A stretch of DNA of 60,474 nt. Source: a virus. Position 1 is the stretch's first letter. Every line of letters starts with the position of its first letter. The position numbers and the translations under genes are program-made. Positions 17,696 through 46,490 of this stretch are shown here, one piece after another. Location: IMG/VR virus record IMGVR_UViG_3300045988_152007, positions 1 through 60,474 of that record; one strand, 5' to 3'. A model generated the notes under the pieces. That model did no database searches and was not told the origin of the DNA. It saw nothing but the letters and a program-made list of their open reading frames with translations.

Positions 17696-17707
17696 ATTTT
17701 ATAATGC

Positions 17708-20428
17708 CTAACTCCATGTGTTTGCGGCAGTTTTTGCCCATATACCTTTTATTTTATGCCAGCCGGTCAAGGTAACAGCAGGTCCGCCAGTGAAGGTGCC
17801 TGTTCCGGCGTTTTTATAGAATACTTTATTTATTTTATCCCATAGACCATAAATATTAGTTGTAGTTTTAACTGGAATAAAATCGCGGACTAAAGTGTTT
17901 CCATCATAAATTTGACAAGAATATAATTTTGCACTTAAAAAGTATTTAGCGGTTCCAACATCATTTAATGCCAATAAAAACATATTAGTTGTAGCATTTA
18001 CTGTGCTAGAAGTATTGGTAATCATAATATTATTAAATGAACATATATTTTTATTTTTATCAATATTTGTTATTTGCATAACAGTAGGAGTTTCAGCAGT
18101 TAATGATGAACCAAAATAATCACTACGATATAATGTAGCGGCTGGAATTGCAGCATTATAAGCTTGAGAAGCAGTAGGAAAAGTAGCATTTCTTGTGCCA
18201 AAAAATGCACTCCAAGTACTCCAAGACATTGGTTCAGCTTTCATAATAGTGCGAGTTGTAGCTTTGGGAATAAAATTACTATCAATATACTATGTGCCAC
18301 TAGACTATATATATTCAATCGGTGTTCCTATTGCTGCAATAGCAGATTTTTCTGTGCCTGCTGTAAAATTGCCACCATTTTCATCAGTATAAAATTTAAG
18401 ATTAACTTTATCCCATAAGCCAGCTTTCCCATCAGATATCCTTCTAGCTGGGATGAAATCACGAACTAATGTACCATTATCATATATTTTACAAGAATAT
18501 AATTTCATTGAAGCTTTATTATAATTGCCACCATTATTTACACTAAATAAATATAAATTATTTCCATCCTTTGAGAAATCACTAGAATTTGGAGTAACAG
18601 TTATTTTGCTAGTGTCAATGCTCCATATATTATTAGTATTATTTGAAATATATTTTCTTTTCCCAGTTAATTCTGCAAGCGTTTTATTATTACTTCCATA
18701 ATAAGCATACATAGTCGTATTTTGTCTCCACCAAGAAAAATATGAACCACTAGTATAATCACCTAGTATCATAACCCATCCACTCGCAGCAGATACATCT
18801 ATATCAGCTTCAACCTTTAGGTTTTTTGAAGCTTTAATGCCAGTGTCAATATATTGTGTACCGGTACTTTCAATGTATTCTAATTCAACTAATCCACTAG
18901 AAATAGTAGTACTACTTCCAGTATTTACGAACATTTGTACTGGTTCTTTCCAATTATTCGAAGTAGTTTTCACTAAAGTATTTCCAGAACTAGCTTCTAT
19001 AACGGTAATACGTATATAGCCATTACCTGCATGGCCTGTTTCACTTGTACCTGTTGGAGAAATAAATGCAGCATTTCCTGCTAATATAGTAGCATTAGTT
19101 AAATAATAAGATGAATTCAATAAACAACCAGAAGGATAATAAGAGGCTGAGCTGGAAGTGTACATATAACCAGAACCACCACCTCCAACACCGATAGCAC
19201 CACCGCCGCCATACCAGCCGCCGCCCCCTCCTGAGCCATAATAAGTGTTTGAACCACTATTATAATTTCCACCTTGTCCGAAGCTTCCTGCAGTAGTATA
19301 ATTAGAATAACTAGTATTTGCTGCACCACCCTAGGTTTGGCTACCACCACCACCATACCAGCTGCTACCACTAGATGAGTCTTGATTATTATATGTCTTG
19401 CCTGATATTCCTCCACCAGCAAAACCAGCCAAACTAGTATAGCCACTAGAACCACTGCCACCACCAGCGACTAAAACTCTAGCATATAAAGAATCGACAG
19501 CAATGCGAATATCTGTGCCGCCGCCACCGCTTCCTCGACTATTAACTGAGGTAGCAGAACCGCCTCCATTGAATCCTCCAGCAGTGGTTGCTCCATTTGA
19601 ATTATAAGTAGTTCCATTAAGGCCCTATCCACCGGTATATAAATATAAATTAGTTTTCTTATTTAGAGTTATAATTCCTTTACTATAACCGCCTTTACCG
19701 CCAGGCTAGGAAGTATTATTAGTTCCATTGCCTCCCTAGGCGCCCCAGCATTCTAATTGATACTATCCTTTTGGAAGAATTACTGATTTCATAGACCCAC
19801 TATAAGGACAATTTAATATATCACCAGTCTATATTTTTGTAGGAGTTGTAACAGTTAAATCATATTTATTAGGAGCTTCATATTGAATTGTTTTATTACC
19901 AGCAAAATATTCAATATTAGTATTGCACCATTCCTGAGTAGGTTCATTACCTGTGCCGAATGCAGCAGTTAAATCAATAAGCATAGCATCATCAATATAT
20001 GCTACTGTATTTCCCACCATGCCTTCAAAATCAAATCTAAATTGAGCTGTCTAATTATCATTCCAGTTAGCACGTACATTATGCCAACTTAATCGCTGCC
20101 ATTGATTTAATTTAGTTTTATCTACTTTAGCAATACCTACTAATGGTTCTGCTATTGGCCAATAACATTGCATTTCAGAACATACATTAACAGTTTCATA
20201 AAAATAAACACTTATATAATATATATGATTTTTTCTGATAGCATATGTGTCAGAGGTTACAATTAATGATTTAGAACTTGAGGTAGATGTGACTTTTAAG
20301 CTATAAGAGCCGGAATGTTTAGGAGAGGTGGCGTAACTAACTGAGCAAGCTGAATTAGCAGTCCAACCTGTCTTTTCAAAACTTGGATTAGTTAATAAAT
20401 TAGTTAAAGTAATTGTTTGTTTTGCCAA
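17708..20428 (-). CDS. large tail fibre (907 aa): N-terminal CBM-like domain, Gly-rich region, two C-terminal repeats (LYSC.IYD.GTLVRDFIP...GLWDK.N..FY); many in-frame TAG
   Basis: 2721 nt, exactly in frame from ATG 20428 to the stop at 17708; joins ORFs 20051..20428, 19829..20020, 18305..19165 and 17708..18244. Confidence 0.6.
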
Positions 20429-20443
20429 TTAAATCAACTCCTT

Positions 20444-20882
20444 AATTTGTATCATATTGTATCCAAATATCGCCGATATTACCATCTGATGCTGTTGGTT
20501 CTGCAGTAGATATTAATATTGGGCGTAAATATTTTACTGATGCAGTAATTGGAGTAGTGCCATTCCAAGTCATTGGTGTAGTTATTCCTGTTGGCTATTC
20601 GATTGTTACTGACGGAGACCAAGTATTAGTAGAAGTTAAGGTTAGATATTTAGTATTCGTAGTAGAATAACCTCTATTACGGAAATCTCTATAATAAAAT
20701 TTTATAGTATTACTACCAGTAGGGATTTCAGTTAGCATATAAATATCTGAATTAAATACTACAATAATATCTTTACCACTGTCCCAAGCATCTTTAATTT
20801 CTTTATAAGTGGTAATATCTTTAGTTGCGATAAATACGCCACCTGCATTTTCAATCTATTCTATAAGTTTAGGTTTAGACAT
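20444..20882 (-). CDS. hypothetical structural protein (~145 aa)
   Basis: ATG 20882 after AGGAGG. Confidence 0.4.
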
Positions 20883-20895
20883 TTAAAAACCTCCT

Positions 20896-21882
20896 TTAAT
20901 TATTAAATTTAGGAATCGCTATATAATAATAAGTATAACCGTTATTATTGAATATACTAGTATAATAACTACTAGCAGCAGTAATAATAACTGATTTTGA
21001 ATTCCAAGTAAAGCTAACATAAGTGCCATTATTGTTAGGAAATGGGTATTTCATTCCTTGTATGCCACACATATAATTTTGAGCAGTACCAGCGTTAGTT
21101 TGCACCATAAATAGCATCAAATAAGCAGGTTCAAAATTAAAATTAAGAGTTTTTATTAAAGCATTATTTCCTATATAACTTCCAACATAAGCTCCTTTGA
21201 TACTTATATCGCCAGTCATTCCATTTACTGATCTAACCAAATGAGATGTAAGATATCCAGCATCATTAGTTAATTGACTTACTTTAGAAATTTTGTTATT
21301 CTATATCTACTAATCAACATATTTTTTATCGGTTAAGTCTCCAGTATTAGATGGTGTATAAGTACTATTCATAGTTATTTTGCCTGTTGTCATAATATTA
21401 TTTTTTGAGGTTAATAGCATTTCATTCATATCTTTTGGCAATTCATTTATTTTATTATCAATAGCCTAAATAGTATCATTTTTTATAATCTATAAGTCAT
21501 TTATCACATCTAATAAATAGTCTTCTGGTTCTATTCCTCGAATATTAAGAACAATAATACTATCATTAGCTGATGCCGCAAAATCTAATAACTTAATTTT
21601 ATTATCTTGAATTGTATAGTTTATATTTTTAGTCATTAATATACCATTAAAAAATATATTTAAATCTTCAGGATTTTCAACAGTAAAAGGAAAAGTAAAT
21701 GTTGTATCTCCTTCTTGTGCAATGAAAGAATATTTATAAGGAAGGTCATCTTCTTTATTTACAATGTATATTTCATCATTATTTACTTTTCCTTGTTTCA
21801 CCATTTGATTATAAATTTTCCTAGATGGAACTTTATTTATAACTAAAGAATCTAATAATTTTTCATTGTTTTTTATTTCCAT
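20896..21882 (-). CDS. tail protein (328 aa) joined across TAGs
   Basis: 987 nt in frame; joins ORFs 21490..21882 and 20896..21240. Confidence 0.55.
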
Positions 21883-21897
21883 CTATTATTCTCCTTA

Positions 21898-22890
21898 TTA
21901 ACTCCAAGCAACAGGTACGATAGTCCAAGTTCCAGTTTTAGATGTACGATATTTAAAAGTACCAGATGAAGATGTGTCAATCCATAATAAAGGTGCTGTG
22001 CCTGACGCGGGAGTAGATGAGCCAATATAGATTGGAAAAGTAGTAGCTGTACCAACTATTGAAGGTTTACTATCATCTACATATTTTTTTGTAGCAACAT
22101 CTCCGTTTGCTGAAGGAGTATAAGTACTATACATAGTAATCTTACTATCAGCAGCCATTGTGTTTGTTTTATTTAAAAACATAATATTGGAAGTATCCGA
22201 TGGTAATGTGGCAACTAAATCATTAATTTCTTTAAGAGTCTTTTCTTTCACAGTATTTATTTCATTAATTGATGAAGTTTTTATAGCTTGTATTTGTTTA
22301 ATTGCATCTTCTGCTTCTTTACCAAAATCAATTGCTGCAGCTCCTTCTATACCCATTACAGTAAGATAATCACCAGCTTCGGCTGTGAATCCAGCAAGTG
22401 TAATTACTTTACTAGATACTGTATAGTTATCTATCTCCCTCATCATTATACCATTATAATAAACAGTAAGTGCGCTACTGTCTTCAAAATCAAATGGAAT
22501 AGTAAATGTAGACTAACCTGCTGTTGCAGTAAATGTAAATCTATTTACTATATGGTCATTAGCGGCAACCTAGTCATCTACATATTTTTTATTTGCGGCT
22601 TCTGTATCGGCTGTTGGAGTTTTTAAATTAGTAATTGTTTTATTATTAATATTAATATTACCAGTCATAGTACCACCAGCAAGAGGTAAATATTTTCCAT
22701 TTATAGTATCTAAGTCATTAATAAAAACCAGATTTCCTACTTTAGTAGCTCCATCACCTATTTTTATTTTCTTTAAATCATCATATATAATAATTTCGCC
22801 TTTTAAGGGGACAAAATTAGTTGCTTTATCCCAATTAGCTTTTGTATCATGCTTCTAAATCATACGGCCTTGGAATGTATTATTTGCCAT
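21898..22890 (-). CDS. tail fibre protein with HylP-type N-terminal domain, 3 in-frame TAG
   Basis: 993 nt in frame; TAG codons at 22513, 22570 and 22855; GGAGGA precedes ATG 22888-22890. Confidence 0.65.
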
Positions 22891-23035
22891 TATATTTCCT
22901 CCTTAAACAAAAATATAGGGAAATAAATATTTTGAAAATAGTTCAAGATATTTATTTCCCTATATTAAATATCTTTCTCAATCATCTATTTTCAAAAGAG
23001 TAAAGATTATAATAAATAAGTTATCAATTTCAAAC

Positions 23036-24178
23036 TTATCCTGTCCATTTAGTCCAAACAGCTGAATTAGTATTTTTTACATAAATAAATCCATCACTAA
23101 TACCAATTGTACTATTATCTATTTTTACACCGCCAAGAGTAGAGGTTGAAGCAGTTGGTAATGTGTATTCAGATATGTCTGTTTTTAAAGCATATTTAGA
23201 TAAATCTGGTTTATTTAATAAATCAGCATAATTACCTGACTAGCTACTAGATGGTAAACTATTTATAATAGCTCGACACATCGCATCTTTGCTGATTGCT
23301 TCTAAAGTAGTAGGTTTTTCTACTATCTTAGACCATAAGATATTTGCATCAGCTATAATTTCTCCTGTTGCATATAATTTACCATTTTCATCAATACCGA
23401 TACCAGTTCCGCCGCCCATAACTACACCTAATGTATTTTCACTAGCTATTGGAGCATGATAATTATTCATGACATCATTTATATACGTTTTAGCCTTTTT
23501 TAAAGTTTCATTATCCTAATTATTTACATAATTAAATAATCCTTGAAATGTATTAGGTCCTTTAATTGTTCCATCTTCTTGTAACCATCTTAATAAATCA
23601 CCTGTTGGCTTTTCTTTGGTAAATTTAATTATATTATAAGCCTAATTTTCCCAAGATATTTCTTTATAATTAATAGCAGAATTATCTTGAGGACTATGAC
23701 CAACACAAGTGGTATCATAATATAACATATCTTCAAGAATAATACCATCTTTCTTGGGCTAAGTATTTTTTTTATATTCTATAGAAGAATAAGTTATTCC
23801 ATTAGAAACAAATTCAATATTACTTTTAAAATAGAAAGATGGGGCTTTATGAATAATCCAGGTTTCACTTAAATCATTTTCTTCATTACCATTAAATTTT
23901 GCTTCTAACATTTTAGTATGATTTTTTAAATCATCTAATGTTACACATTTTAGTTCTACAAATTTATTATTTACTTCTTCAGATAAATTTTTTTCTGTTA
24001 AAATCTTAGGTTTATCATTTAAATCATTGTAGCTTGTAACTATATCTTTCTAATAAGCTATTCCGCCATTAAGTCTAATATCAGATAATAAATTTTGTAA
24101 TTCTTCTACTGTTAATTTAACGACATATTTATCACTTATATTAGGAAACTATAATGATTTTAATTGTTTATCTGCCAA
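23036..24178 (-). CDS. hypothetical tail-associated protein (380 aa), TTG start, 5 in-frame TAG
   Basis: 1143 nt in frame; AGGAGG 8 nt before TTG; contains ORF 23240..23470. Confidence 0.5.
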
Positions 24179-24297
24179 TGAAAGTTCCTCCTTTCAATGT
24201 TTCTTATTCTAAAATTATATAAAAAATAAAAATATCAAATTATTTAAATTAGTCCAGATAAAAAAAAAATAAAGACTCCAAAATGGAGTCTTTATTA

Positions 24298-24639
24298 TTA
24301 TATATTTACAGTTGAAGAACCGCAATCAAAAATTACATAGTTGGCATCAGGGTTAGCGCCTATTTCATCAAGGGTATAGGATGGCTTTGTAGGTGCCTTA
24401 GCCCATGCCGGGACATCTGCTCCAAGCCCTGCTCCCCAAGGTAGTTTTTCCCATGTGGTCGTACCATCACCAACTTTAAATAATACAGTAGGAGCTGTGG
24501 TTGTTGTACCAGATGTAAGTGCTGGTACATAACAAAATCCCACTTCACCGGCAAGTAAAACTTTTGATTTGTTTGCAGTCCAATTAGCAAGTGTATCGTA
24601 TTTTGACTTAATACGAATATTTAAAGTTTTATCAGCCAT
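24298..24639 (-). CDS. small HylP-N-domain protein (113 aa)
   Basis: ORF track; motif DTLANW...GE.G... Confidence 0.6.
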   Translation of the reverse strand: MADKTLNIRIKSKYDTLANWTANKSKVLLAGEVGFCYVPALTSGTTTTAPTVLFKVGDGTTTWEKLPWGAGLGADVPAWAKAPTKPSYTLDEIGANPDANYVIFDCGSSTVNI

Positions 24640-24740
24640 TCCAATCCTCCTAATGGAAAGGGGAGATTTCTCTCCCCTTATAATTTATTAAATCAAAGCG
24701 TATTAGCGTTACCACCATCAAGGATAAGAGTATCAGCACC

Positions 24741-27326
24741 CTATTTAAGAAGATCAGTAGAAACTGCCTTCACGCTAAGAGTATGATTAGCATTATTCTC
24801 AATAGAAGTGCCATCACCCTTATAGCTTTCAAGAGCTATTGTCTTCTTAGTAGGAGTCTGTTCTGTACCATTAACTGTAATCTTTTCAATTACGTTAACT
24901 TGAGCGCCTTCTGCAATACCATCAAGTTTAGTAATCTTGGTATCAGCAATTAAGCTCTTACCAGTTTCTTTCTTGACAACATCAGCATCTTTTGCATACT
25001 GAGTAATATTAAGGGTATCAATAGCATCTTTAACAGTTTTCGCTACAGAACCTTCAACAGTGTCAGCGCCTTCAAGAGTAGTAAGACGAGTAGCTAAACC
25101 ACTTTCAATACCTGTCGCACGACTGGTTTCATCGGTAATTGCAGTATTAAGTTTTGTTTCTTCGGCCTTAGCACGAGCAGCTTCATCTTCAACTGCTTTC
25201 TTATTAGCTGCAATATCTTTAACCATTTGATCAGCAGCAGAGCCATGCGTGCTAATGTAAGTCTGAATTTCTTTTAAGGTATCAACAGCAGCATCGCCGA
25301 CTTCTGCAGCTGCAAGGAAGGTGTCAACACGAGATTTAACATCAGCAACTGCAGTAGCATTTGCTTGTTCTTTACCTTCTGCACGCTTCTGTTCAACAGC
25401 AACAGCATCCTTAACTGTCTTAGCCACAGAGCCTTCAACAGTATCAGCACCATTTAACTTAGTAATAGCATCAGCATTAGCTTTGATACTTGCCTTAACA
25501 GTGCTATCATCATAAGTAGCAGCCTTTTGAGCATCAGCAATCATCTAAACAATTGTCTTGTCTGCTGAAACAGTGCCAACTTTATCGCTTAATGCATTAA
25601 CAGAAGTCTGAGCCTCAGTGCCCGCTTTCTTTGCATCAGCAACAGCCGTATCAACTTCAGTCTTAACAGCATAGCCCTTAGCTTCGACTTCTTTCATTGT
25701 AGCCTTGGAAGCAGCAAGTTCATAAGCTTCTTTTACAGTGCCAGTATGTTCTTCACCAAGAATAGCAGTCTTAGCAGTTGCAATTTTAGTATCAGCATTA
25801 GTGCCTGCGGTATTAATAGCTTCGGTCTTAGCTGTATCAATTGCACCACTTACGCTATCAACATCAACCTTACCTTCAAGAGCGGCAACTTTTTTACCAA
25901 TGGCAGAAGTATCGCCAACTAAACCATCAGCATAAGTTTTAGCAGAAGCAAGAGTAGTCTTACCGACTTCATCTGCATACATCTTTGCGCCATGGATAGT
26001 ATTGCTATCCTTAGTATCAATATCAGTCTTACCATCTTTGCCGCCAAGAGTATGGATTAAATTATCAACAGCAGTATTAACAGTGCTTTCAGTAGCAACT
26101 TTGTTAGTGCCAGCATTATAAGTACCCTCAAATGTTAAATTATTCTGCTTAGCATCGAGAGCATCCTGAAGACCATCAATCTTGGAAATACCAAGAGTAG
26201 GAATGTCAGAAACAGCAAGATTCTCACCTTTAGTTACAAGACCTTTAGCATCATAAGTAACTTTAGTAGCAGTACCAGCGGTAATATCTTTATTGGCAAC
26301 GACAGCCGCATCAGCCGTTTTTTTCACAGCAGCAATAGCAGTTGCATTATCGCTATCAGCTTGATCAAGAGCTGTCATCTTAGTATCATAAGCAGATTGA
26401 TCAACAAAATTACCCGCATCTTGCTTTGCATTCCACTTAGCGATATCTTCAGCAGTAATACCAGCCGCAGGAAGATTTTCAACTACGCTAACACGTCCGG
26501 CGAGAGTAGTTAAATCAGCAGCCTTAGCATAATCGCCAATTTTGAGAGCCTTAATGGCGCCATCAATATAAGCCTTTACTTCAGGAGATTCGCCTTCAGC
26601 AGTACCAAATCCTTTAAGGATAGCTTTTAATTTATTAATATCACCAGTTAAACCATTAACAACTTCTGGATGCTTTGCGACCCAGTCAACTAATTCTTTG
26701 AAGGTATCAATAGTGCCATTATCAGTAGCCTTGGTAGCAAATGCATCAATAGCATCATTAACAGCCTTCGCGACTGAACCTTCACCAGTGCCTTTCAGAA
26801 CACCAATAGCATCTTCATTAGTCTTAATACGCTTACGAAGACCAGTAGTATCATCAGCACCAACAACAGTTTCAAGGGCATCTACATCAGCCTGTGCTGC
26901 AACAGCTTTATCATCAGCAGTCTTTGCATTAGTGACGCCTTTATCTGCTTGCTTTTGGGCAGCTTCAATTAATGCATATAAACCAGTTGCTGCGGTTTCG
27001 CCTTCCTTAGCTGCACCGACCTTCTCAATAAGAGAAGCAACTTTACCTTGTAATGTAGAGACATCAGAAGCAAGGTCACCAGAAGCAGTAGTAGAAGCAA
27101 GCTTAACAAGAGTGCCAGCTGCATTACTGATCATGTAAGCTTCGCACTTATTATCTACAACTAAAGTTAAAATCTGACCGACATAAGCTATAGCGCCAGA
27201 TTTAGCATAAGTTTCTAATTCTGTTTTATTATACCATACAGCGGTAGTATCAACAGGAGCAGGATTACCACGCTTAATAGACAGCGGGAAACCCATATAA
27301 GCAGCATTATTTAAAATAGTAGCCAT
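24741..27326 (-). CDS. Ala/Thr/Lys-rich repeat fibre protein (861 aa) with an in-frame TAG at 25545-25547
   Basis: ORFs 25545..27326 and 24741..25544 abut with no gap in the same frame; the GADTVEGSVAKTVKDA repeats occur on both sides of the TAG. Confidence 0.7.
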
Positions 27327-27349
27327 ATTATATTATTCCTCCTTCAAAA

Positions 27350-28570
27350 TTAACCAATCGTAACGCTATATGTTTCACCAGCGTCAATAGAAGCAGGTTG
27401 ATAGACATATACATCATAAGGAGCTGCAGCATAGCTTTCAGCACCTTCAACACTAACAGTAGTGCCTTGTTTAACAAATAGAGCTGTAACATCAGCATTA
27501 AGAGCACTTGGCATAAAAACCTTCGTAATCTTACGACCAGCAGGAACTGCAACGATAACTTTCTTTGCGCCAGCTCCAGCACCAAATGCGCCTAATGTAC
27601 CAGCGCCCTAAGCTTGTTTATGAGCAAGAGCACGAACATTAGCAGAGTTAAGTCCAGCATCAGAAGTCATAGGACCCCAGAACATATAACGAACACCCTG
27701 AAGAATATTACTATCCTTAGAAGCAGAGCCTGCTGCAATTTTACCCGCAGGATAAGGATTGCCCAAATTGGTTACTGGAATAGATCCTTCATTATAAGTT
27801 GCTTTAGCTGTAATCTTCTTAGCAGTAGCTTCAGCAACAACATTTTCAAAAGTACCTGTTGCAGTTGTTTTCTTTTCGGTTACACCAGTGCAACTAACTT
27901 CCCAAGTCTAAGCCGCAATACCAGTAGCTGGACCATAGGTATAACTACCAGTAGATAGAGCTGCTGTATATGTTAGATTCTTTTTAGTACCAATCTCAAA
28001 TGTACCAAAGCCGCCCTGTGCGCTGAAGCTAACAGCAGGATTGGACTTAGTGGGATTAGCCTCTTGAGCCATTAGGCTAGAAAGCACCTGTTCGACATTC
28101 TTACCTTTCGCCGCAAATTTAGCAGAACCCGAAGGCTTAGAAAGAGTACCAATAGCAACGGTATAAGTAATGTCATCATCAAAATAAACATTGTCAGCGC
28201 GATAATTGCCATCCATAGCTTTCCAAGTACCATCATATACATAAGCAGTATAAGAAATCTTATCGCCAGTAATAACACGCTTTACAATAGCAGTATCGCC
28301 ATTATGAAGTTCTGCAGAAGCTACAACACGAGTAATAGCCTGAACATCAGTTTCCTCACCTGCTGGAATAGCTTCGAAATTTTTAGCTTCATCACCGCCA
28401 ACAAAGGTTAAGTTTTCAAGAGTGGATTCACCATCACCAATCTTCATTTTATGAAGATCACTATCATAGACAATTTCACCACGAAGGGGAACTTTATCTT
28501 TCTTCGCCGCAAGATTGGCAGTAGTATCATTTAATACTTGAATACGAGTATTAAGAGTTTTATCAGCCAT
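27350..28570 (-). CDS. tail fibre with HylP-type N-terminal domain (406 aa), in-frame TAGs
   Basis: ORF 27908..28570 ends in TAG and the frame continues to TAA ~27350. Confidence 0.55.
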
Positions 28571-28742
28571 AAATCATTTTCCTCCTATAAAATTAATTAA
28601 GAGTATTTGCGTCACCGCCATTGAGGATATCATAACTATCTTCTCCATATTGAATAGGTACAAGATCATTATTTACATCTACAATATAAGGCAACCATTT
28701 ATTATTCTAAAAAATAGATACAATTTGACCAACACAATTATG

Positions 28743-29108
28743 CTAGGTAATATAGTTAATTGCATCTACTAAAGAATTGAAAGAATTTTGTGCTGGAGAG
28801 GAAGTTTCTGTAGTTGTCCATTTACCATCGTAAATATATAATTTACCATTATAAATACACATTTCTCCATCCTCAGCGGTAGCTGGAAGTGTATCAACTG
28901 TGCCTAAAAATTCCATTACATTATCAGGAAGATCAATTGTACCACTTTCGCCACCAATATATGGTAAATCATTCCATAAGGTTTTACCATCACCAATTTT
29001 CAGTTTATGAGTGTCTAATTCAAATCCAGGCTCGCCATCCTTAAGCAATAAGTTTTTTTCGCGCCATGTAATTGATCGACCTCTTTTGAACTTGATGATA
29101 TCAGCCAT
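28743..29108 (-). CDS. small HylP-N-domain protein (121 aa)
   Basis: ORF track; KRG...W...GE.G.ELDT..LKIGDG motif. Confidence 0.6.
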   Translation of the reverse strand: MADIIKFKRGRSITWREKNLLLKDGEPGFELDTHKLKIGDGKTLWNDLPYIGGESGTIDLPDNVMEFLGTVDTLPATAEDGEMCIYNGKLYIYDGKWTTTETSSPAQNSFNSLVDAINYIT

Positions 29109-29123
29109 AGATTATTCCTCCTT

Positions 29124-30185
29124 CTAGACAGTATAGAAGCCATTGACAAGTACTTGTCTATAGCCAGGAGCTAGATAAGAAGGATCTAATTCTCTATTAA
29201 AACGACCACCACTAATTTCAATACGAGGGTCGCCCTCAACCTTGAAATTCTTATCTTGTGCAGTAATAAATGTACCACCGCTAATATATGTATTTTGAGG
29301 ATTTAAATCTTCACTTAATTTACGAAGATAAAAATTATATTCGCCTTGACTTGGCTTACTATTTTCAAAATACCCATCAGTGATAGTTATTGACTTACCA
29401 TTAGCAAGAATAGTATTATAGAATGTGCCGCCATTAATATTTAAAACAGCATTATCATCATTTTTTATAGCATATAAGCCGCCAGCGAATGTACCATCAT
29501 TAATAGTTAATGTAGGCATTTCAGCATTTTGGCCTTGAACATAGCCATTAGTAGTATTACCAGCGTGATAATCCCAATAGCCATTTTCAATCATGCTAGA
29601 AAATTCGCCACCACTCATAAACATGCCGCCATTGATTGTCATAGTGCCATGATTAACAGCAGTATAATAACCATTACCTGCTACATCAGTAGTACGTTGT
29701 AATTTACCATTATTAATAGTAATATTACCATTATTAAAAACTGCGGCATTTTCATTCTTATTACATTCAATAGTACCTTGGCCCTTAATAGTTAAATCGC
29801 CGTTTGCTTTGATATCTATTGGCGTTTTTTCATTATTAATAATATCATTACCATTTAATTCAATAGTCAATGCTTTATCAATAGAAACACTGTTATCAAA
29901 GTTAGCATTAAGACGAATTGTACTTCCTGCTGGAGCTTTCATAAATGCCACATCAATAGATTGATAAGGCACACCATCTACAACCGCAGGATTATCAGTG
30001 TATTCTTGAACATTAACAACTTTAGTTCCGCCTACATAAGATAGTTCATTCCAAGGGGTTGAACCATCGCCGACTTTAATCTAATGTGTATCAAGTTCTA
30101 CGCCGATTTCACCAGCTGCAAGAATTATATTCTTTTTAGACCAGCTAGTTGATTTACCGCGTCTTAATTTAATAATTTCAGCCAT
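29124..30185 (-). CDS. tailspike with HylP-type N-terminus and beta-helix (pectate-lyase-like) repeats, one in-frame TAG
   Basis: 1062 nt in frame; NGG/ING repeat pattern; N-terminus MAEIIKLRRGKSTSW... Confidence 0.6.
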
Positions 30186-31139: not shown

Positions 31140-31748
31140 TTAAATATATTTCCAAAAATATCCTTTACAACTTTTTCTTGTACCTTTATATACATCAGCA
31201 ATATGGTGAGTATTTCCATTTTCTTTCTCAGCTTCTGTTATTGAAGGATAAATTTTTAATATTTTATTAGTTTTTATATCAACCATAGCAACTGGCTTAT
31301 ATAAAGTTTGAATTCTTCTAATATCTCGTTCTTGTGGAGTTACCCCATGATTATCTAATGCTACTTTAATAGTATGATCATCATAATGAGTAATTTCATG
31401 AATTTGTTTATAATTATTACCTTGATTATATAAAGAATATATTAAATCATAATCTGCATAACGTTTTCCATCTCCACCAATCGTAGCATTATATCCATAT
31501 TTAAAAGATCCTAATTTTTCAATCCAATATTTTTCTCTTTCTTCTGGATCATTAGTTTCTTCAATAAGTTTAATATGAAAATGTTCTATTCCATATTTTC
31601 TCATTGCTGCATACAAAGGACGTTTTTCATTTCTTTCTCGAAAAGCATCATTACAATGTTTTTTAAAACGATTTTCAATAGAAGATTCAGTTTTACCAAT
31701 ATAAATTTTTTCATTTATGTCATTTGTTATCTAATAAATGTATGCCAT
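31140..31748 (-). CDS. GIY-YIG homing endonuclease with an in-frame TAG
   Basis: MAYIYQITNDINEKIYIGKT N-terminus joined to ORF 31140..31616. Confidence 0.7.
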
Positions 31749-31838
31749 AATTAAATAGCTCCTTTTCATTATATTATAAGGATTAGTTTAAATAGTATCA
31801 CCACGAAAAGGTCCCTTATATGATACCGCGGAATCGCC

Positions 31839-32384: not shown

Positions 32385-33035
32385 TCATATATATTTCCAG
32401 ATATAACCATATGCTGTTTTACGTTTTCCATTTGCACATTCAGCAATATGACTTCTAACTCCAGAATTATAATTTAGACATTTTTTATTTTCAAAACACC
32501 ATTGTCCAGCTTCTGCTACAGAATCAAAAGTATTAATTAATATTCCATTTTTATTATATTGCCTAATACTTTTGGATTTTTCTTTTTTCATCTATTCATT
32601 ACTTTGATTAATTATCTAAATTTGGTGTTCTTTAGCTATCTATTGAACTAAATCACAACTACAATTAAATAATTTAGCTATTTCAATTGGACGTGGATTT
32701 ATTCTTAATGCTTCTAAAATTTTTTGATGGTCATATTTTATCTTGCCATCTCCTCCTTTAGTAGCATTATATCCATATTTAAAAGAGTTTAATTTCTCAA
32801 TCCAATAAATTTCTTTTTCGCTAGCTTCTTCAGCAGAACATTCTTCTAATTCCTTAATAGAAAAATTTTCTGGACCATATTTATTTATTGCGTTATATAA
32901 AGGACGTTTTTCATATTTAGATTTTTTATAATCTCTTAAATATTCTTTCCAACGTTCCTAAATATTATTTTTTAATGTTTTACCAACATAAATTTTTCCA
33001 TTAATATTATTTGTTATCTAATAAATATAAGCCAT
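32385..33035 (-). CDS. GIY-YIG homing endonuclease (216 aa) with 5 in-frame TAG
   Basis: 651 nt in frame from ATG 33033-33035 to the stop of ORF 32385..32591; N-terminus MAYIYQITNNINGKIYVGKT. Confidence 0.7.
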
Positions 33036-33161
33036 AATTATTATCTCCTCCATAATATTATGGAAATTTTGGTTGCAAAATTAATTTTCCGCGACCAAAA
33101 ATTTTTTAATCAATTAGCATTACCCAAGATACGCCCCGTGGAGGCTTGATTAATGTATCTC

Positions 33162-33289: not shown

Positions 33290-33440
33290 TCGACCAGACA
33301 GTAGGACTCGAACCTACAACACACGGCTCCCAAAGCAAATTTATAATTGCTGTATTGTCTTTCATAAATGGTGGAGCCAGAGGGAATCGCACCCTCGACT
33401 TTGAATTAAATTCAACGTTTTCCTACCATAAACTATGTCC
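33290..33440 (-). other. two tandem degenerate tRNA-like elements (T-arm plus acceptor 3' strand; one has anticodon-like loop ATTTAAT)
   Basis: T-loops TTCGAGT and TGCGATT with flanking stems but imperfect or absent 5' acceptor strands. Confidence 0.25.
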
Positions 33441-33542
33441 CCAAATATGATGGTTATAAAACTTAATCTAATGCAGGCATCAGATTAATAGAACGCTCTA
33501 TCAAGTTCTATGTTTCAAAATCGCTTATATCGGGAAAGCGAA

Positions 33543-33929: not shown

Positions 33930-33977
33930 ATTTATTGGTGCAGGATATTGGATTCGAACCAATGACCTCTTGGATTA

Positions 33978-34456
33978 CTTAGCAATGCTCTTACAATTTC
34001 TTCAACACCTCCTCCGCCAAATAATCTTGAGCGAAATTAATACCAATTCGTTGTCCATTTTTAGGGGGGGTATAACGAATAGATTTAGTAGCTCCGCTAC
34101 ATTCTTCAACAGGAATTAAATAAACTTTTCCTTGGTGATAAGTAGCGAAAAAATCAATATCATTTTTTGTGTATGGAGTTTTTTTATAACCAGTCGTATT
34201 ATGACTTTGCCATCTCGTAGCAAAAGAAAAATGTGTAATTTCTCCTAATGTATATTCATCTTTAGCATGTTTAACTTGAACTTTATAAAGTTTACCTTTA
34301 TAATCCATAATTAAATCATACTTTTGACTATTTCCAAAAGGAAATGAAATATCACATCCCAGTTCATAAAGACCAGTAATACATTGTAATTCTGCTAAAT
34401 TACCGACTTCTTTAGAATTTCGTGTCATAAAATAGAAATTAAAAGAGTTTGCCGAG
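33978..34456 (-). mobile_element. 479-nt intervening sequence in a tRNA gene carrying a PD-(D/E)XK endonuclease ORF
   Basis: Same organisation and length as the insertion at 5097..5575. Confidence 0.5.
33991..34428 (-). CDS. PD-(D/E)XK-family putative homing endonuclease (I-Ssp6803I-like)
   Basis: ORF 33991..34464; probable start at the internal Met (MTRNSKEV) because 34457+ is tRNA exon sequence. Confidence 0.65.
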   Translation of the reverse strand: MTRNSKEVGNLAELQCITGLYELGCDISFPFGNSQKYDLIMDYKGKLYKVQVKHAKDEYTLGEITHFSFATRWQSHNTTGYKKTPYTKNDIDFFATYHQGKVYLIPVEECSGATKSIRYTPPKNGQRIGINFAQDYLAEEVLKKL

Positions 34457-35035
34457 TAAACCAAACGCTCTAACCAGCTGAGCTAATCCCGCATATAGTC
34501 TACTTAATTAAACTGCCAAGAAAAATTAAATAGACTTTTATAAAAATTCCTCATTGGGTATGGAGGCTATATCAAACTGGCTTTTACAGTAGGCCCAGTA
34601 AAGTGGATCTGCTTGATTTCCACAAGTATGAGTTTAATTAAAACAATTTTAACTCTAATTAAAACCTTGTTGCCTAGACTTTGACTATACATAGCGTTTG
34701 GACAAGGTAACTCAAACCTCGGGTTTCACTGTTACGTCGCTCCCCTAAGAACCAACGGAATGTTTTTCGATTACATTCAACGCCTTCTTTTGCTGTCCAA
34801 ACATGGCAGGTATCCTTTCCATCTTTTATCTTGTTCAACACAAGATGTGCTACCTTTATTGGTATCTCATACGCACGGTCTCCCGCAATATGATCTTGCC
34901 ATTACTCTTTAAGATTCTCTAATAGGATGAACTACGAGAATTTTGCTATCTTATATTACTTACGCGTTTTCATATAAGTGCCATTTAACGTCAGCGATGC
35001 TTTATGAAATTTCTCAAACTTGACCTGGTGATGGT

Positions 35036-37011: not shown

Positions 37012-37159
37012 TGGTGGGGCCGGTTGGATTCGAACCAACGATTTGGCAATTTGGCCCAAAATGTTAGGTTTGAACTCACATCTTTCTTGCGCATAGACTA
37101 TTTTACCATTTAAACTAATCTTGGATAAGTTGCCGGCCTTACCGCTTGGCCACGACCCC
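37012..37159 (-). tRNA. tRNA with Gln-like D-arm split by a 73-nt anticodon-loop insertion (37055..37127); anticodon CCA under the U/G boundary rule, UCA or UAA under others
   Basis: Exon1 GGGGTCG-TG-GCC-AAGCGGTAA-GGC-C-GGCAA-CT; exon2 CCAAA-TTGCC-AAATC-GTTGG-TTCGAAT-CCAAC-CGGCCCC-A-CCA. Confidence 0.45.
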
Positions 37160-40620: not shown

Positions 40621-40929
40621 TTATAAACCAAGCTTTTCAATTAAAGCTTTTAAATTTTCTTCTTCTTCTGGACTAATTTCTGTAGCCTTCTTTACAGACT
40701 GAATTGTTGCACCATCTTCAAAATTAAGTTCATTATTACCAAAATCCATAGAACCAAAATTTTCCACAGGAGTTTTCGGACAAGTTAAACTAATTGCAAT
40801 CTGAATATATTGTCCATTTTCTTTAGCTCGCACATAATACTTTTTATCATAAGATCCGAGGAAATCTTCACCAAATGCTTCTGCAATTTTTTCTACAACA
40901 GCATCTTTAGCAATACTACCTTTTGCCAT
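40621..40929 (-). CDS. hypothetical protein (102 aa)
   Basis: ORF track. Confidence 0.55.
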   Translation of the reverse strand: MAKGSIAKDAVVEKIAEAFGEDFLGSYDKKYYVRAKENGQYIQIAISLTCPKTPVENFGSMDFGNNELNFEDGATIQSVKKATEISPEEEENLKALIEKLGL

Positions 40930-42251
40930 TATTCATTCTCCCTATCAAATAAAATTTCATCATAACAAGCTTCACAATAGTAAGCATTGTTTTCTTCATC
41001 ATAAATTAAATCTTTTTTATCATAATACATATTACAATTATCACATATCTAATAATTGTCTCCGCAACTACGGCATACATAACCATCATCATCATCTAAT
41101 GATATTGCTTCAGGAATATAAATACGTCTACCGCACTCTCTACAGAAAGTAAAATCTTCTGTTTCTTCTGTACCATATTTAAGTTCGCAATCAATACAAA
41201 GCATTGTATCTGTTAAAACACAATCATTTTTACCACAAATACAGCATTTTACATCATGTCCTATATTAACTTTAGTAGTGGTACGAGTTCTTGGAAGAAT
41301 TAACTTATCTTGTGGAATACCTTCTTCATGCCAATAAGGTTCACTATAAGCAATACTAAACCAATAGTCATATACAGTAGAATGAAGAGGGTCATTGTAA
41401 TGCAAAGGATTTTTTGGGTCAACAATAACCTTAATATCTGGGGTCATTACGTATCCCGTAGGCAATAAACGAACTTCATTAGAAAAAATTTTATCATTTA
41501 TTGTAAATGTATTATATTTTTCATGACACCAATCAGTAAAACGGTATCCTTGCCCGAAAAATGTTTCATACAGTTCAAGAGCAAAATCTTGTAATCCTTT
41601 ACTTTCATAAGGATAATGCCGACCTGAAATAACCATAGTATCATCATCAGACACATGAAGAAGCATACGCCACTTCTTATCCACCCATGGCACATCATCT
41701 GGAAATCTAGGTAAAACTGCGTCATGTTCACTCTTAATATAACATATAATTGTACAATTATCTGCCATATAAGATAAATTACCAGCCCGATATTCTCCAT
41801 CAAGTGCATGGCATGACCGCCAGTTATGCGTATTTTCACTTAAACTAAGATAATCCAATGGATGAACTGACATACAAAAATATCCACTAATTTTTGTATT
41901 CTGAATGAGCATACTGGCTTTATCTTGTATTTCAGTAAGAATTTCCTTATCTTCTACAAAATATTTAAATGCTTTAATTATTTTCATTCCTTTTGGAATG
42001 ATAGTTCCATTATTCATTGGATAATCTTCGCTTAAAATATTATTATAAAAATCTTTTCTATTATTTTCAACAAAATCTCTTAATTCAAATAAGCCATAAC
42101 GCCAACGAATGTTGTCAATAAAACAATCTAATTCAGCTTTTTTATCATCTTCTGAAATAGACATTGTAATAGGTGCATGGCTTTGATAAATTAATTTATT
42201 ACCAGGAAGCCTGCTATAAAATTTGCATTTATTCTCTTCCCAATCATTCAT
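40929..42251 (-). CDS. paralog family B protein (HPLDY...W.SC core plus C-terminal CxxC zinc-ribbon repeats), 440 aa with one TAG
   Basis: ORF 41049..42251 ends in TAG and continues to TAA 40929-40931. Confidence 0.6.
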
Positions 42252-42331
42252 TAATTTATCAATATTTAAAAGGTTAATATCCAGCCCCTATGAATAGGCA
42301 ATAACCTTCTTTACTTGTTCTTTAATTTCAT

Positions 42332-43330
42332 TTAAATTACAACAGGGACTCGACATTTATTACATACTCTTTCTTTCATATTATTTGAATAAAATAAATT
42401 ATAACATCTTTCACATTGATGAATATTAGGATCAAGTGCTAAACATTCAGGACATACATGGACCTTTACTCCATCAATATCAAGAGGAAAATCTTCCCAC
42501 TCATAATATAACTGATTACAAAAACTACAATTAAGAAGTTTATCATCATCAAAATCATAAGGCATATGATATTTATTAGTTAATGTAATCCACTGAAGAT
42601 ATTCCTTGCTAGGAATAAATTTATATTTATCTGCATTTTCGATATCATCAAGCATTTTACATACTTTATTAATTGTATTATACAATGTTCTAATATGCAA
42701 ATCTTCATTTTGAGTATGTTCATGATGATAGCCAACTGATAAATTTACTCCGGCAATTTCCCATTCAGGCATAATAATACTAATATCTGTAAATGATCCA
42801 ATTGCTTGCTTAAAGCCGAAACTTTCAACATAATCCATGAACGTAAAATTTTCACACTCATAGAAGACACAATCTCTTTCACCAGCTCTATCAAGCTCAA
42901 TCATGTACTTAATATTTGGAGCTACTGGATGTTCTTCAACAAATATATGTGCCCCATAGCCACCCATTTCTTCATCTGTTGTAAAAAGAACATAAGGTCT
43001 ATACTTTTTGCGTAAAATCTGAATAATCGCAAAAACACCTGCTCTATCATCTGCTCCAAGACCTTCCTTGCCTTTATAAACAGCTCTTTTCTCATTATAA
43101 GTAAATTGACGAATTGGCTGTCTAAATACAGTATCTACATGTGCGATAAGCATAACAGGAATATTGCCTTCAGCATATACATAATCTTCTGTAATCTCTA
43201 CATTAGAATATTTATTAGATACAAAATCACCAAGAGCTTTCAAAAGACCTACTTCGCTAATCTTGAATAGTCCTTCCAAAAGCCCTCTACAATTTTCAGT
43301 AAACTCAGGAACTAAAACTTTTTTACCCAT
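42332..43330 (-). CDS. M20/M42-like metallopeptidase-domain protein with a C-terminal zinc ribbon
   Basis: ORF track 332 aa; motifs LIAHVDTV and GADDRAG; C-terminal CPEC...CERC...CNKC. Confidence 0.55.
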   Translation of the reverse strand: MGKKVLVPEFTENCRGLLEGLFKISEVGLLKALGDFVSNKYSNVEITEDYVYAEGNIPVMLIAHVDTVFRQPIRQFTYNEKRAVYKGKEGLGADDRAGVFAIIQILRKKYRPYVLFTTDEEMGGYGAHIFVEEHPVAPNIKYMIELDRAGERDCVFYECENFTFMDYVESFGFKQAIGSFTDISIIMPEWEIAGVNLSVGYHHEHTQNEDLHIRTLYNTINKVCKMLDDIENADKYKFIPSKEYLQWITLTNKYHMPYDFDDDKLLNCSFCNQLYYEWEDFPLDIDGVKVHVCPECLALDPNIHQCERCYNLFYSNNMKERVCNKCRVPVVI

Positions 43331-44846: not shown

Positions 44847-46490
44847 TTAAATCGCGATTGACCTATTGTAACTATAAAAACGCTCAGGATAACGACGAAT
44901 AGCATAAGTATAATCAGTAATTATAGTAGAATAAGGATCATTAGAAATTATCTTTTTAGCCTCTACATTTAAATCATCTTCTTCAATTAAAAGAGCCACC
45001 ATACCATAATAAGGACCGCCATCCAATCGAATTGTTTCAGCTCTAATATCAGTATCTCCAAGATACTTTAAATATTCTTTATTAGCAAGACATTCACTAC
45101 AAATATAATGTTCATCATAATCAATATTAATAGTTTGATTTTCAATATGTCCAACAAATACAGTAGTGAAATCTTCATCAAAATGAGCATCCTCACAGCA
45201 TAAGCATCTATGCAAATCATGATAACAATCTTCGCAAACCAATTCACCATCTACTTCAATTGCATCATTTGCATTAACTCGTTCGCCACAGCAATAACAA
45301 TAAGTGGGTGGATCACAGTCTTCACAAACCACCATTTCAGTATCATCAGACCAATAAGCATCCTCGCCGCAGCACATACAAGTCATTAAACCAGAATAAT
45401 TAATTGTAAATGTACGATATTTATTGTTTGGTGAATTAATTGAAAAAATTCCATAATTCTCTGTATTACCAAAATCATTATACATTTCATTTGTTGCAAA
45501 ATCCAACAGAAAATGATTATTCTTATCTTCTTTATCTTGCCAAGCTCCAATATAAGAGCAACTTTCCAAACTCTCTTGTGGCTTTTTTCTGTTATAACGC
45601 CATTCAGTTTTTTCTTCAACCAAATCAACAAGCCAATTTACAAGAGCTTTATCAAATGCAATATTATAATAAGGATAAGATTTTACAGAACAAATAGCAT
45701 TCGGATGGACAATAATTAATTCTCTCCAGCTTTTAGAAGTCCATTCAATAGAAGTGTTTGCTGGATAATAAGGTTTAGTAGTAATATATGCTATAACAAC
45801 TAATGGACTATTCATCATCTCAATAGTACCAGCACGATAACTTCCTGGTCCTTGAGTCCAGTTCATACAACTTTCCCATCCATTTGCATTATCGCTCATA
45901 GTCATATAATCCAAAGGATGAATAGATAGAGTAAATTTGATTTTAGATTTGCGTACTTCGGTAATACGTGAAATATGATTGCGGAAAATTTCAAAATCAG
46001 GTAAATCAAATTCTTTAGCCATTTTTTGAAGAACTTTCATTACCTTGGCTCCTTCTGGAACTTTAACTGCCTTACCATCTTTATTATGATAAATAAATCC
46101 TTTAGCAACTCTATTAGTAAAAAGTTGATAAGCTTGAATTAAATTATATATTGCATGTTTTGTTGCATAACTATCGTCAAAATAAATATTATTAAGCTCA
46201 AATAACTTACGAAGATTCTTAATAAAATTAATACCAGGATTAAAACTATAGAGATATTCACTAACTTCTCTTATTTTTTTATTATCTCCATCTTCAACCT
46301 GGATTTCCTTCTCCAGCATTAACTTTTCACCAAAAATATCAAACAGAGTTTGCTTACTCTTATTCCATTCTCGAAGGATATAATCAAGAGGGGCTTTAAG
46401 TTTAACGGGGGAATTAATGCCACCCCATTTTTCAATATATTCAGTAATATATTTCTTATCTTGGGCCGTTAATGCTTCATAAGGTGTCAT
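44847..46490 (-). CDS. paralog family B protein (547 aa)
   Basis: ORF track; SIHPLDYMTMSDNANGWESCMNW motif plus C-terminal CxxC repeats. Confidence 0.7.
   Translation of the reverse strand: MTPYEALTAQDKKYITEYIEKWGGINSPVKLKAPLDYILREWNKSKQTLFDIFGEKLMLEKEIQVEDGDNKKIREVSEYLYSFNPGINFIKNLRKLFELNNIYFDDSYATKHAIYNLIQAYQLFTNRVAKGFIYHNKDGKAVKVPEGAKVMKVLQKMAKEFDLPDFEIFRNHISRITEVRKSKIKFTLSIHPLDYMTMSDNANGWESCMNWTQGPGSYRAGTIEMMNSPLVVIAYITTKPYYPANTSIEWTSKSWRELIIVHPNAICSVKSYPYYNIAFDKALVNWLVDLVEEKTEWRYNRKKPQESLESCSYIGAWQDKEDKNNHFLLDFATNEMYNDFGNTENYGIFSINSPNNKYRTFTINYSGLMTCMCCGEDAYWSDDTEMVVCEDCDPPTYCYCCGERVNANDAIEVDGELVCEDCYHDLHRCLCCEDAHFDEDFTTVFVGHIENQTINIDYDEHYICSECLANKEYLKYLGDTDIRAETIRLDGGPYYGMVALLIEEDDLNVEAKKIISNDPYSTIITDYTYAIRRYPERFYSYNRSIAI

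Follow-up and report, generated by a model that had tools for sequence, protein, structure and literature searches.

A homing-endonuclease insert in the anticodon loop of a phage tRNA-Val(UAC) gene, and a covarying helix that may allow its removal by proteins

What does a tRNA gene encode when its anticodon depends on the point at which an intervening sequence is cut out? The question is raised by a split tRNA gene on the minus strand of the IMG/VR virus record IMGVR_UViG_3300045988_152007, whose positions 1 to 60,474 form the stretch analysed here, hereafter the window. The original prediction for this locus held that the group I rule (exon ending in U, intron ending in G) would join TTT to TAAT, giving the loop UUUUAAU and a UUA anticodon able to read the UAA stop codon, and that a nearby junction, TTTAC joined to AT, would give UUUACAU with anticodon UAC (Val). 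The arithmetic of both junctions is right, and the split gene exists as described, as seen from in-silico splicing and from a near-identical uninterrupted copy in a related phage; of its proposed span, 33936-34491, the start holds and the end falls one base short, G1 being 34492. Comparison of alleles indicates that the insert is a bare endonuclease gene with two short arms, placed between C36 and A37 of tRNA-Val(UAC) (Table 1), and we consider it probably, if by no means securely, a mobile tRNA intron devoid of ribozyme, which would be removed by protein-dependent excision and religation to yield tRNA-Val(UAC).

Exon 1 (GCGGGATTAGCTCAGCTGGTTAGAGCGTTTGG-TTTAC, with C36 at 34456) provides the 5' strand of the acceptor stem (GCGGGAT), the D arm, the 5' strand of the anticodon stem (TTTGG) and the loop bases TTTAC that end at C36, in the layout GCGGGAT-TA-GCTC-AGCTGGTTA-GAGC-G-TTTGG-TTTAC. 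Exon 2 (AT-CCAAGAGGTCATTGGTTCGAATCCAATATCCTGCACCA, A37 at 33975 and A76 at 33936) provides A37, U38, the 3' strand of the stem (CCAAG), the variable loop, the T arm, the 3' strand of the acceptor stem (ATCCTGC), A73, which had been correctly noticed before, and an encoded CCA, in the layout AT-CCAAG-AGGTC-ATTGG-TTCGAAT-CCAAT-ATCCTGC-A-CCA. The interrupted gene was called by neither ARAGORN nor Rfam. With the insert removed and C36 joined to A37 (GGTTTACATCCAAG; loop UUUACAU), ARAGORN calls a 77-nt tRNA-Val(UAC), with cloverleaf, anticodon UAC and A73 all present.

An exact search with exon 2 retrieved two sister-phage contigs (L001 and L002), which carry at the equivalent locus, between the same upstream and downstream flanks, an uninterrupted tRNA that reads GGTTTACACCCAAG (anticodon arm GTTTGG-TTTACAC-CCAAG). 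Against the tRNA model of Rfam, the L001 orthologue reaches 72.3 bits, and the spliced window gene is identical to it at 75 of 77 positions, the differences being one D-loop base and C38U; since only two positions separate it from a gene with such a score, the likeness is not one of chance. Moreover, in two metagenome contigs whose endonuclease is 99% identical (L009 and L010), exon 2 begins with AC, and precise excision restores TTTACAC exactly. Because no pair of cut points other than C36|A37 reproduces the uninterrupted sequence, the junction is unambiguous, and the UUA product (TTT+TAAT) has no counterpart among the uninterrupted alleles. The mature anticodon is almost certainly UAC, the valine alternative that the original prediction had also offered, and not UUA; provided that it undergoes maturation, the gene would give an ordinary tRNA-Val(UAC). 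In the window, GTA makes up 274 of 757 valine codons (36%), and there is no other tRNA-Val within the 60 kb.

Almost the whole insert is an open reading frame (ORF), preceded by 27 nt and followed by 17 nt of non-coding sequence, the latter including the TAA stop codon (33993-33991), which falls within the 3' arm. Its product belongs to the I-Ssp6803I-type family of PD-(D/E)XK homing endonucleases: residues 4-137 of 145 match PF11645 (PDDEXK_5) with an E-value of 8e-26 and 91.1 bits against a cut-off of 26.1, and the match to PDB 2OST (E 5.5e-8) aligns the catalytic YD...KVQVK region. Residues K36, Y37, D38, Q51 and K53 are invariant across 29 homologues. Insert-plus and insert-minus alleles share the same locus in close relatives, both in this lineage (L001/L002) and among Enterococcus phages, and we infer that the endonuclease spreads the cassette by DNA homing into uninterrupted tRNA genes.

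Homologues of the endonuclease number more than 200, and DNA was recovered for 69 of their loci. A search with an alignment as query gave two viral loci and five from metagenome-assembled genomes, and a metagenome scan gave 44; the single endonuclease protein as query against viral contigs returned no related loci. Hosts were screened by in-silico splicing with ARAGORN in a constrained version, an all-pairs screen being too permissive. In 58 of the 69 loci, the endonuclease gene lies at position 36|37 of a tRNA that folds normally after splicing, and these loci reduce to 45 distinct junction sequences, mostly in tRNA-Val(UAC), with three in tRNA-Ala(UGC) and three in tRNA-Thr (UGU, UGU and AGU). 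Insert length ranges from 461 to 491 nt across the family and always corresponds essentially to the ORF alone.

The window itself holds two further interrupted tRNA genes of this kind. The tRNA-Pro(UGG) insert contains a PF11645 ORF at 5551-5108; its junction is 36|37, or equally 37|38, as a G is repeated there. The ORF of the third has a Shine-Dalgarno sequence (AAGGAGG), a TTG start and four to five in-frame TAG codons. Its junction is ambiguous, Tyr GUA (34|35), Ser GGA (35|36) and Thr GGU (36|37) all being valid for ARAGORN, and the arms of its insert depart from the Val-type register. Furthermore, a tRNA-Asn(GUU) gene in the cultured phage EFP01 of Enterococcus (a Schiekvirus infecting E. 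faecium; KY549443, exons at 105243-105277 and 105741-105776) is split at 36|37 by an endonuclease gene whose product is 42% identical, and its interrupted form is unannotated in the record; spliced in silico, this tRNA aligns in one piece, with 97-98% identity, to 33 related Enterococcus phages in which a tRNA-Asn is annotated. In phage My1 and in Kuttervirus phages, more distant endonuclease homologues are free-standing and lie between tRNA genes. Megablast with 10 kb of the window found nothing similar among GenBank phages. When viral contigs were scanned for exact copies of the 15-mer at the most frequent exon-intron junction (CTTACTCGACAAACT), all 39 matches lay by chance inside unrelated genes, and no ORF-less version emerged. 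A literature search found no description of endonuclease-only tRNA introns or of the covarying helix presented below.

In the cyanobacterium Synechocystis, I-Ssp6803I is encoded by a group I intron of the tRNA-fMet gene (PMC3384342), so that assuming a group I intron at the present locus was reasonable. The insert nevertheless shows none of the features looked for. No Rfam match to group I or group II introns was obtained, whether in the insert region (E<=10), across the window (gathering score) or in eight homologous loci (E<=0.5). RNAalifold on 37 full inserts (endonuclease identity 42-100%) returned the terminal helix only, and neither program found a conserved P3-P9 core. In place of the exon-end U paired to a guide G in P1, exon 1 closes with C36 in Val and Ala, with U36 in Thr and Asn and with G36 in Pro, and this base pairs with base -3 at the intron's 3' terminus rather than with a 5'-proximal guide. 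The terminal G is also absent: the last intron base is A in 44 of the 45 distinct inserts and U in the other, and it is always complementary to nucleotide 34, with which it covaries. Even the G at -3, on which the group I junction would depend, is replaced by A, C or U in 14/45, and several inserts have no G in their last 7 nt. By these comparisons the insert is not a group I intron, and it fits no intron type described in bacteria.

Table 1. Position of the split tRNA-Val gene, of the related interrupted genes and of candidate RNA-repair genes in the window
Feature	Positions	Strand	Basis or remark
Exon 1, tRNA-Val(UAC) nt 1-36	34456..34492	-	Sequence; in-silico splicing; 75/77 match to L001 orthologue
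Intervening sequence, 480 nt, between C36 and A37	33976..34455	-	Intron-less L001/L002; L009/L010
Exon 2, tRNA-Val(UAC), A37 to A76	33936..33975	-	Sequence; spliced product
5' arm, +1..+13, TCGGCAAACTCTT	34443..34455	-	Pairing counts over 45 loci; mini-construct fold
3' arm, -17..-1, AAGAGCATTGCTAAGTA	33976..33992	-	Pairing counts over 45 loci
I-Ssp6803I-type PD-(D/E)XK homing endonuclease ORF, 145 aa	33991..34428	-	Pfam PF11645, PDB 2OST
Second interrupted tRNA, tRNA-Pro(UGG)	5613..5058	-	Exon 1 5613-5577, insert 479 nt, exon 2 5097-5058
Third interrupted tRNA, class II (long variable arm), A73	~4629..4102	-	PF11645 ORF in insert
tRNA with 73-nt ORF-less insert (37124-37052)	37159..37012; sister L002:5619-5764	-	Insert follows CTTAT
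AAA_33 / polynucleotide-kinase-like P-loop protein	56592-56047	-	Domain scan
Calcineurin-type metallophosphoesterase	48582-47803	-	Domain scan
RlaP (RNA-ligase-associated Pol-beta) nucleotidyltransferase	49586-48780	-	Domain scan

The arms are conserved in pairing and not in sequence, as shown by the alignment of the 45 distinct inserts, with intron bases numbered + from the 5' end and - from the 3' end. Bases +1..+7 pair with -4..-10, A+8 is unpaired and faces A-11, C-12 is an extra unpaired base, and +9..+13 pair with -13..-17, taking in part of the stop codon. The pairing continues into the exons, where the three final bases of the intron (GTA in the window, complementary to UAC) pair with the anticodon, nucleotides 34-36, and U33 pairs with A37. 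Over these loci, 92.9% of cells are standard pairs, compared with 31-45% when the partners are slid by one to three columns; compensatory double changes occur at 18 of 21 pairs, and none of 500 shuffles reached the observed values. Since G.U pairs outnumber A.C pairs 84 to 33 (20 of the A.C lying at one position), the pattern suggests that selection has acted on the RNA of the sense strand and not on inverted repeats in the DNA. A target-site duplication and DNA terminal inverted repeats were also considered and rejected, the repeat being inverted, tolerating G.T far above A.C and covarying as RNA.

The intron end follows the anticodon of the host tRNA: GUA accompanies UAC and UGC, ACA or AUA accompanies UGU, AUU accompanies AGU, CUG accompanies UGG, to which it pairs through G.U pairs in tRNA-Pro, and AGC accompanies GUU in phage EFP01. 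In mini-precursors in which the ORF was replaced by a short loop, the Val construct folds as the predicted helix (-23.7 kcal/mol, z = -4.1) and the Pro construct as one continuous helix (-23.9 kcal/mol, z = -4.2). In these models, arm pairing and anticodon pairing together extend the anticodon stem into one long helix of the precursor RNA, centred on 35:-2.

About this centre, the intron side of the modelled helix mirrors the tRNA side. At a distance of three pairs, the tRNA has 32.38, C.A in 37/45, and the intron has +2.-5, which is C.A in 20, U.G in 11 and U-A in 9, hence C.A or U.G in 31/45. At distances 4-8, the five anticodon-stem pairs are matched by five intron pairs (+3:-6 to +7:-10). 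The purine.purine contact 26.44 (45/45) at distance 9 has its equivalent in A+8.A-11 (43/45), and beyond it the D stem corresponds to the 5-bp helix of the intron. The two junctions lie on opposite strands, 3 bp apart, between +1 and +2 from the centre on one strand and between -1 and -2 on the other, which amounts to a 3-nt 3' stagger symmetric about nucleotide 35. A 7-bp helix has its 5' edge at each junction and stacks on another helix of 4-5 bp. By analogy, the helix is organised as the substrate of a two-fold-symmetric enzyme would be, like the archaeal bulge-helix-bulge (BHB), with a different geometry. A pseudo-two-fold-symmetric exon-intron structure with anticodon-intron pairing, which characterizes the BHB class, was found here, the pairing in six anticodon contexts; the two 3-nt bulges and 4-bp helix of the BHB were not, as bases 31-34 are not complementary to -6..-3.

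Under protein-dependent splicing, an endonuclease of the host or the phage would cut both strands at the symmetric positions, and an RNA ligase would then rejoin the exons within the anticodon loop, possibly helped by the polynucleotide-kinase-like, phosphoesterase and RlaP repair genes of the phage; the product would be a normal tRNA-Val with loop UUUACAU. We infer both the occurrence of cutting and joining and the enzymes involved. One candidate nuclease is RNase P, which might act on two back-to-back minihelix mimics (7+5 bp) and would leave ligatable 3'-OH and 5'-P ends directly; a dimeric double-stranded RNA nuclease and the intron's own endonuclease are others. RNase III as sole nuclease was rejected, its stagger being of 2 nt, not 3 nt, and an 8-nt loop being left. 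In this context, RlaP reportedly accompanies RNA ligases in the genomes of phages (PMC7824862). The broader proposal, that these inserts represent a new class of mobile intron in phage tRNA genes, whose arms mimic the anticodon/D-arm helix and build a symmetric duplex that proteins cut and religate, is a tentative one.

Several points weigh against removal by proteins. Of about 40 ORFs scanned in the window, which covers under half of a genome of roughly 140 kb, none matched a splicing endonuclease (EndA/Sen), RtcB, or a Trl1-type or Rnl ligase in Pfam, PHROGs or NCBIfam. A canonical BHB was tried and rejected, since the required central 4-bp helix is not complementary and no 3-4-3 motif can be drawn. 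We know of no bacterial RNase for which duplex cleavage with a 3-nt 3' stagger is on record (RNase III: 2 nt), and phage tRNA genes are often dispensable. The insert is carried by only one of 35 related Enterococcus phages, which fits a recent and possibly merely tolerated invasion, and in two loci (L042 and L043) the cassette lies amid degraded tRNA fragments. Most of these points favour a different account, in which the cassette sits in a dispensable tRNA gene and is never removed, the locus yielding no functional tRNA-Val: neither a ribozyme nor recognisable splicing enzymes were found in the insert, its homologues or the window ORFs scanned, EFP01 is the single carrier among its relatives, decayed contexts exist, phage tRNAs can be spared, and homologues stand free between tRNA genes in My1 and Kuttervirus phages. 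The arms would then serve the endonuclease message, either through its release from a polycistronic tRNA transcript or through stabilisation by a 5'-3' panhandle. Yet a panhandle need not reach the exon, and the last three intron bases match six anticodons; the helix begins exactly at both junctions and mirrors the anticodon/D-arm geometry of the tRNA. Moreover, the cloverleaves formed by the exons are still perfect at 58 of the 69 loci, where endonuclease identity goes down to 42%, and the split gene is the sole tRNA-Val(UAC) of the window despite the abundance of GTA. Such a tolerated disruption is the main rival and deserves serious attention, and we regard it as unlikely. A variant of enzymatic removal would make the PD-(D/E)XK protein of the intron itself the RNA endonuclease, which would recognise the pseudo-symmetric helix just as it does the pseudo-palindromic DNA of the anticodon stem-loop, and would cut both strands with an equal 3-nt 3' stagger before a ligase rejoins the exons. 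The symmetry of the RNA junctions about nucleotide 35 and their stagger suit this idea; some PD-(D/E)XK nucleases cleave RNA, and I-Ssp6803I leaves 3-nt 3' overhangs on its DNA target. I-Ssp6803I also binds a 23-bp pseudo-palindrome as a tetramer (PMC3384342). However, the half-helix of the intron neither copies the sequence of the DNA half-site nor covaries with the anticodon stem, A-form RNA is unlike B-form DNA, and a 73-nt insert lacking an ORF in another tRNA of the window would need the enzyme in trans. We also know of no RNA activity in the I-Ssp6803I family, and we find this variant quite improbable.

Two other accounts would have the RNA splice itself. The original prediction amounts to a group I intron that splices at U34|...G-3 to give the loop UUUUAAU and a UAA-reading suppressor tRNA; the bases of the window permit it (exon 1 ...TTT; insert ...G|TAAT), and the reassignment of TAG in this genome, on which its significance was argued, is borne out by a tRNA(CUA) at 2466-2540 and by 133 in-frame TAG among 15,450 codons (window ORFs of at least 100 aa). 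Against it stand the missing group I core and boundary bases that are C and A where the rule asks for U and G, a -3 position that is not G in 14/45 family members, two inserts (L014 and L049) devoid of any G in the last 7 nt, the lack in the insert of an internal guide sequence pairing U34 with G, and a rule that yields no coherent product in the tRNA-Thr, -Pro and -Asn hosts, whereas the alleles without intron read UAC. TAA also behaves as a normal stop: it closes 42 of the 53 ORFs, many of which have a further stop 0-10 codons later, and no sign of TAA read-through was seen in the window. On these comparative grounds the suppressor reading is refuted and scarcely credible; in place of a second suppressor, comparison points to the ordinary tRNA-Val(UAC). 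Self-splicing by an unrecognised ribozyme, overlapping the ORF or contained in the arms, would instead be protein-free and precise at C36|A37, and would yield the same tRNA-Val(UAC). The junctions are indeed precise and conserved, as is the terminal helix, and homologous endonucleases classically reside in self-splicing introns, such as the tRNA-fMet group I intron of I-Ssp6803I (PMC3384342). Nonetheless, beyond their pairs the arms conserve just A+8, A-11 and C-12, too few for any known small ribozyme; RNAalifold showed no conserved structure inside the ORF over proteins 42-100% identical, and no Rfam ribozyme family matches, which makes such a ribozyme very improbable. A small self-cleaving ribozyme in the arms had likewise been rejected for its too few invariant unpaired bases.

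The ORF-less insert of 73 nt lies in a gene that would be tRNA-Ile(UAU) if its junction were also 36|37. The insert opens with a 7-bp stem (CCAAGAT/ATTTTGG) and closes with G-CCA exactly at the 3' junction, and it includes D- and T-loop-like motifs. Because its minimum free energy structure, folded alone, is not a cloverleaf (z = -0.2), the tRNA-likeness of this insert rests on the stem, the GCCA and the loop-like motifs only. A nearly identical insert occurs in the sister phage L002 within a different tRNA body whose anticodon stem is compensated, and the exon bases beside it are co-conserved between the two bodies; an exact scan with exon 2 of this gene (37051-37012) gave no match. In two phages with a Val-type insert, tRNA matches with ~50-nt insertions were also seen (L003:2456-2576 and L017:512-636), resembling a CUA/UAG-anticodon tRNA and a Phe(GAA) tRNA. 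For the TAG-recoded Lak megaphages, 'enigmatic' tRNA introns were described (Devoto et al., 2019, PMC6784885), one of them being offset by one base from the canonical eukaryotic/archaeal prediction and possibly encoding a tRNA itself (PMC6784885). The 73-nt insert matches that last description. Apart from the Lak introns, we know of no report of a ribozyme-free mobile tRNA intron removed by proteins in bacteria or phages. The Lak introns and the present inserts are non-group-I inserts in tRNA anticodon loops of TAG-recoded gut phages; the Lak introns are short, with no endonuclease gene reported and no structure or mechanism proposed, whereas here there is an endonuclease cassette and a defined covarying helix.

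Regarding the tRNA-Val itself, its acceptor stem (34492..34486 with 33946..33940, minus strand) contains G3:U70, together with A73. G3:U70 is the alanine identity pair and a major identity element of AlaRS. Of the 45 host tRNAs, the pair is confined to two tRNA-Ala hosts out of three (L022 and L024) and to the tRNA-Val of this phage lineage, including the uninterrupted orthologues of L001 (copy 2) and L002, so that a GUA-reading tRNA mischarged with alanine is conceivable. Upstream of the split gene, ~250 nt (34540..34800, minus strand) without a long ORF are conserved in the sister phages (L001:2030-2270 and 2350-2560), with sequences such as ...ACTGGGCCTACTGTAAAAGCCAGTTT...CCTCCATACCCAATGAGGAATTTTT..., and may represent a structured non-coding RNA or a processing signal. 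The L001 counterpart of this region additionally contains a further tRNA-Val copy and a fragment of a tRNA 3' half.

The suppressor tRNA(CUA) (2466..2540, minus strand) is labelled 'Pyl' by ARAGORN. In-frame TAG codons are concentrated in the structural-gene block (ORFs 7057..30185), with up to 12 per ORF, and are nearly absent from the 44-60 kb block, a distribution that matches the early/late recoding pattern described for gut phages. If the window has any ochre-suppressor candidate, it would be a tRNA-like gene at 33442..33369 (minus strand; L002:12246-12316 in the sister phage) and not the split tRNA. This gene scores 48.5 bits with Rfam and is missed by ARAGORN; its anticodon arm has just 15 nt (UUGAA-UUUAA-UUCAA), which with a 4-bp stem gives the loop AUUUAAU, with U33, A37 and a UAA-reading UUA anticodon. 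It further combines G3:U70 and A73, the alanine identity set, with an A5xG68 mismatch and an unusual T loop (UGCGAUU). The use of TAA as the usual, often backed-up stop speaks against this candidate as well.

Other features were recorded in the window. A full-length ROOL RNA (323 bits; 3430..4023, minus strand) and a RAGATH-33 RNA (139 bits; 1417..1529, minus strand) adjoin the tRNA array and the suppressor tRNA. Three paralogous ORFs between tRNA genes (6192..6839, 31140..31769 and 32385..33053, minus strand) start with MAYIYQITNNINGKIYVGK, have a GIY-YIG-like N-terminus and are probably free-standing homing endonucleases; HNH-type endonuclease ORFs occur at 52581-53504 and 1703-2149. Paralogous proteins of 475-572 aa (40929..42356, 44847..46490 and 50788..52506, minus strand) have a Cys-rich C-terminus and share the motif (S/I)HPLDY(L/M)(T/S)(M/L)S(D/E)N...W(E/R)SC; they have no Pfam or NCBIfam match, and one of them matches a PHROG of unknown function.

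Introns of bacteria and phages are generally considered to splice themselves (group I or group II), and the splicing of tRNA introns by proteins is regarded as typical of archaea and eukaryotes. The inserts described here form a widespread family, with 45 distinct loci as well as tRNA-Pro and tRNA-Asn, that keeps one fixed tRNA position and adapts its arms to the anticodon of the host tRNA. If they are spliced, infected bacterial cells would be capable of cut-and-rejoin tRNA splicing, which would be the first protein-dependent tRNA splicing pathway in bacterial cells, and EFP01 on Enterococcus faecium would offer a cultured model, besides a concrete structure, for the 'enigmatic' Lak introns. 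Splicing would be relevant, too, to the old proposal that archaeal introns are group I descendants that lost the ribozyme. Furthermore, since standard tRNA finders miss interrupted genes, recoded gut phages are under-called in both tRNA repertoire and predicted genetic code.

Among known systems, archaeal BHB introns include rRNA and tRNA introns with LAGLIDADG homing endonuclease genes, and eukaryotic pre-tRNAs have an anticodon-intron helix. With these the present element shares the freedom from a ribozyme, the pseudo-two-fold exon-intron pairing, junctions on opposite strands and an anticodon paired to the intron; like archaeal introns it can house a homing endonuclease, and its removal would likewise require a protein endonuclease and an RNA ligase. 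It differs from the BHB in having neither 3-nt bulges nor a 4-bp central helix, its junctions lying 3 bp apart inside a continuous helix, and in its position, 36/37 rather than the 37/38 of archaea and eukaryotes. Phage enzymes are able to heal and seal breaks in the tRNA anticodon loop, as in the Pnkp/Rnl1 pathway of T4; the window has kinase, phosphoesterase and RlaP genes, and no RNA ligase gene was identified among its scanned ORFs. In contrast to the free-standing endonucleases of phage tRNA clusters, which lie between genes, here the endonuclease gene is inside the tRNA gene. A 2014 review located all phage introns then known in protein-coding genes (PMC3984707), and the cyanobacterial tRNA-fMet intron was reported at 33/34 (PMC13011429). 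The Synechocystis intron is likewise an anticodon-loop insert carrying a homologous PD-(D/E)XK endonuclease, and, as in bacterial group I introns, alleles with and without the insert coexist, as homing predicts. Unlike it, the present insert is almost all ORF, without P3-P9 core, U.G pair at the 5' junction or terminal G, and occupies 36/37 of Val, Ala, Thr, Pro and Asn tRNAs in phages. In brief, the element is best filed as a mobile tRNA intron with a homing endonuclease, one that would act like an archaeal protein-spliced intron, yet conforms to neither the group I nor the BHB type, and resides in phages of bacteria.

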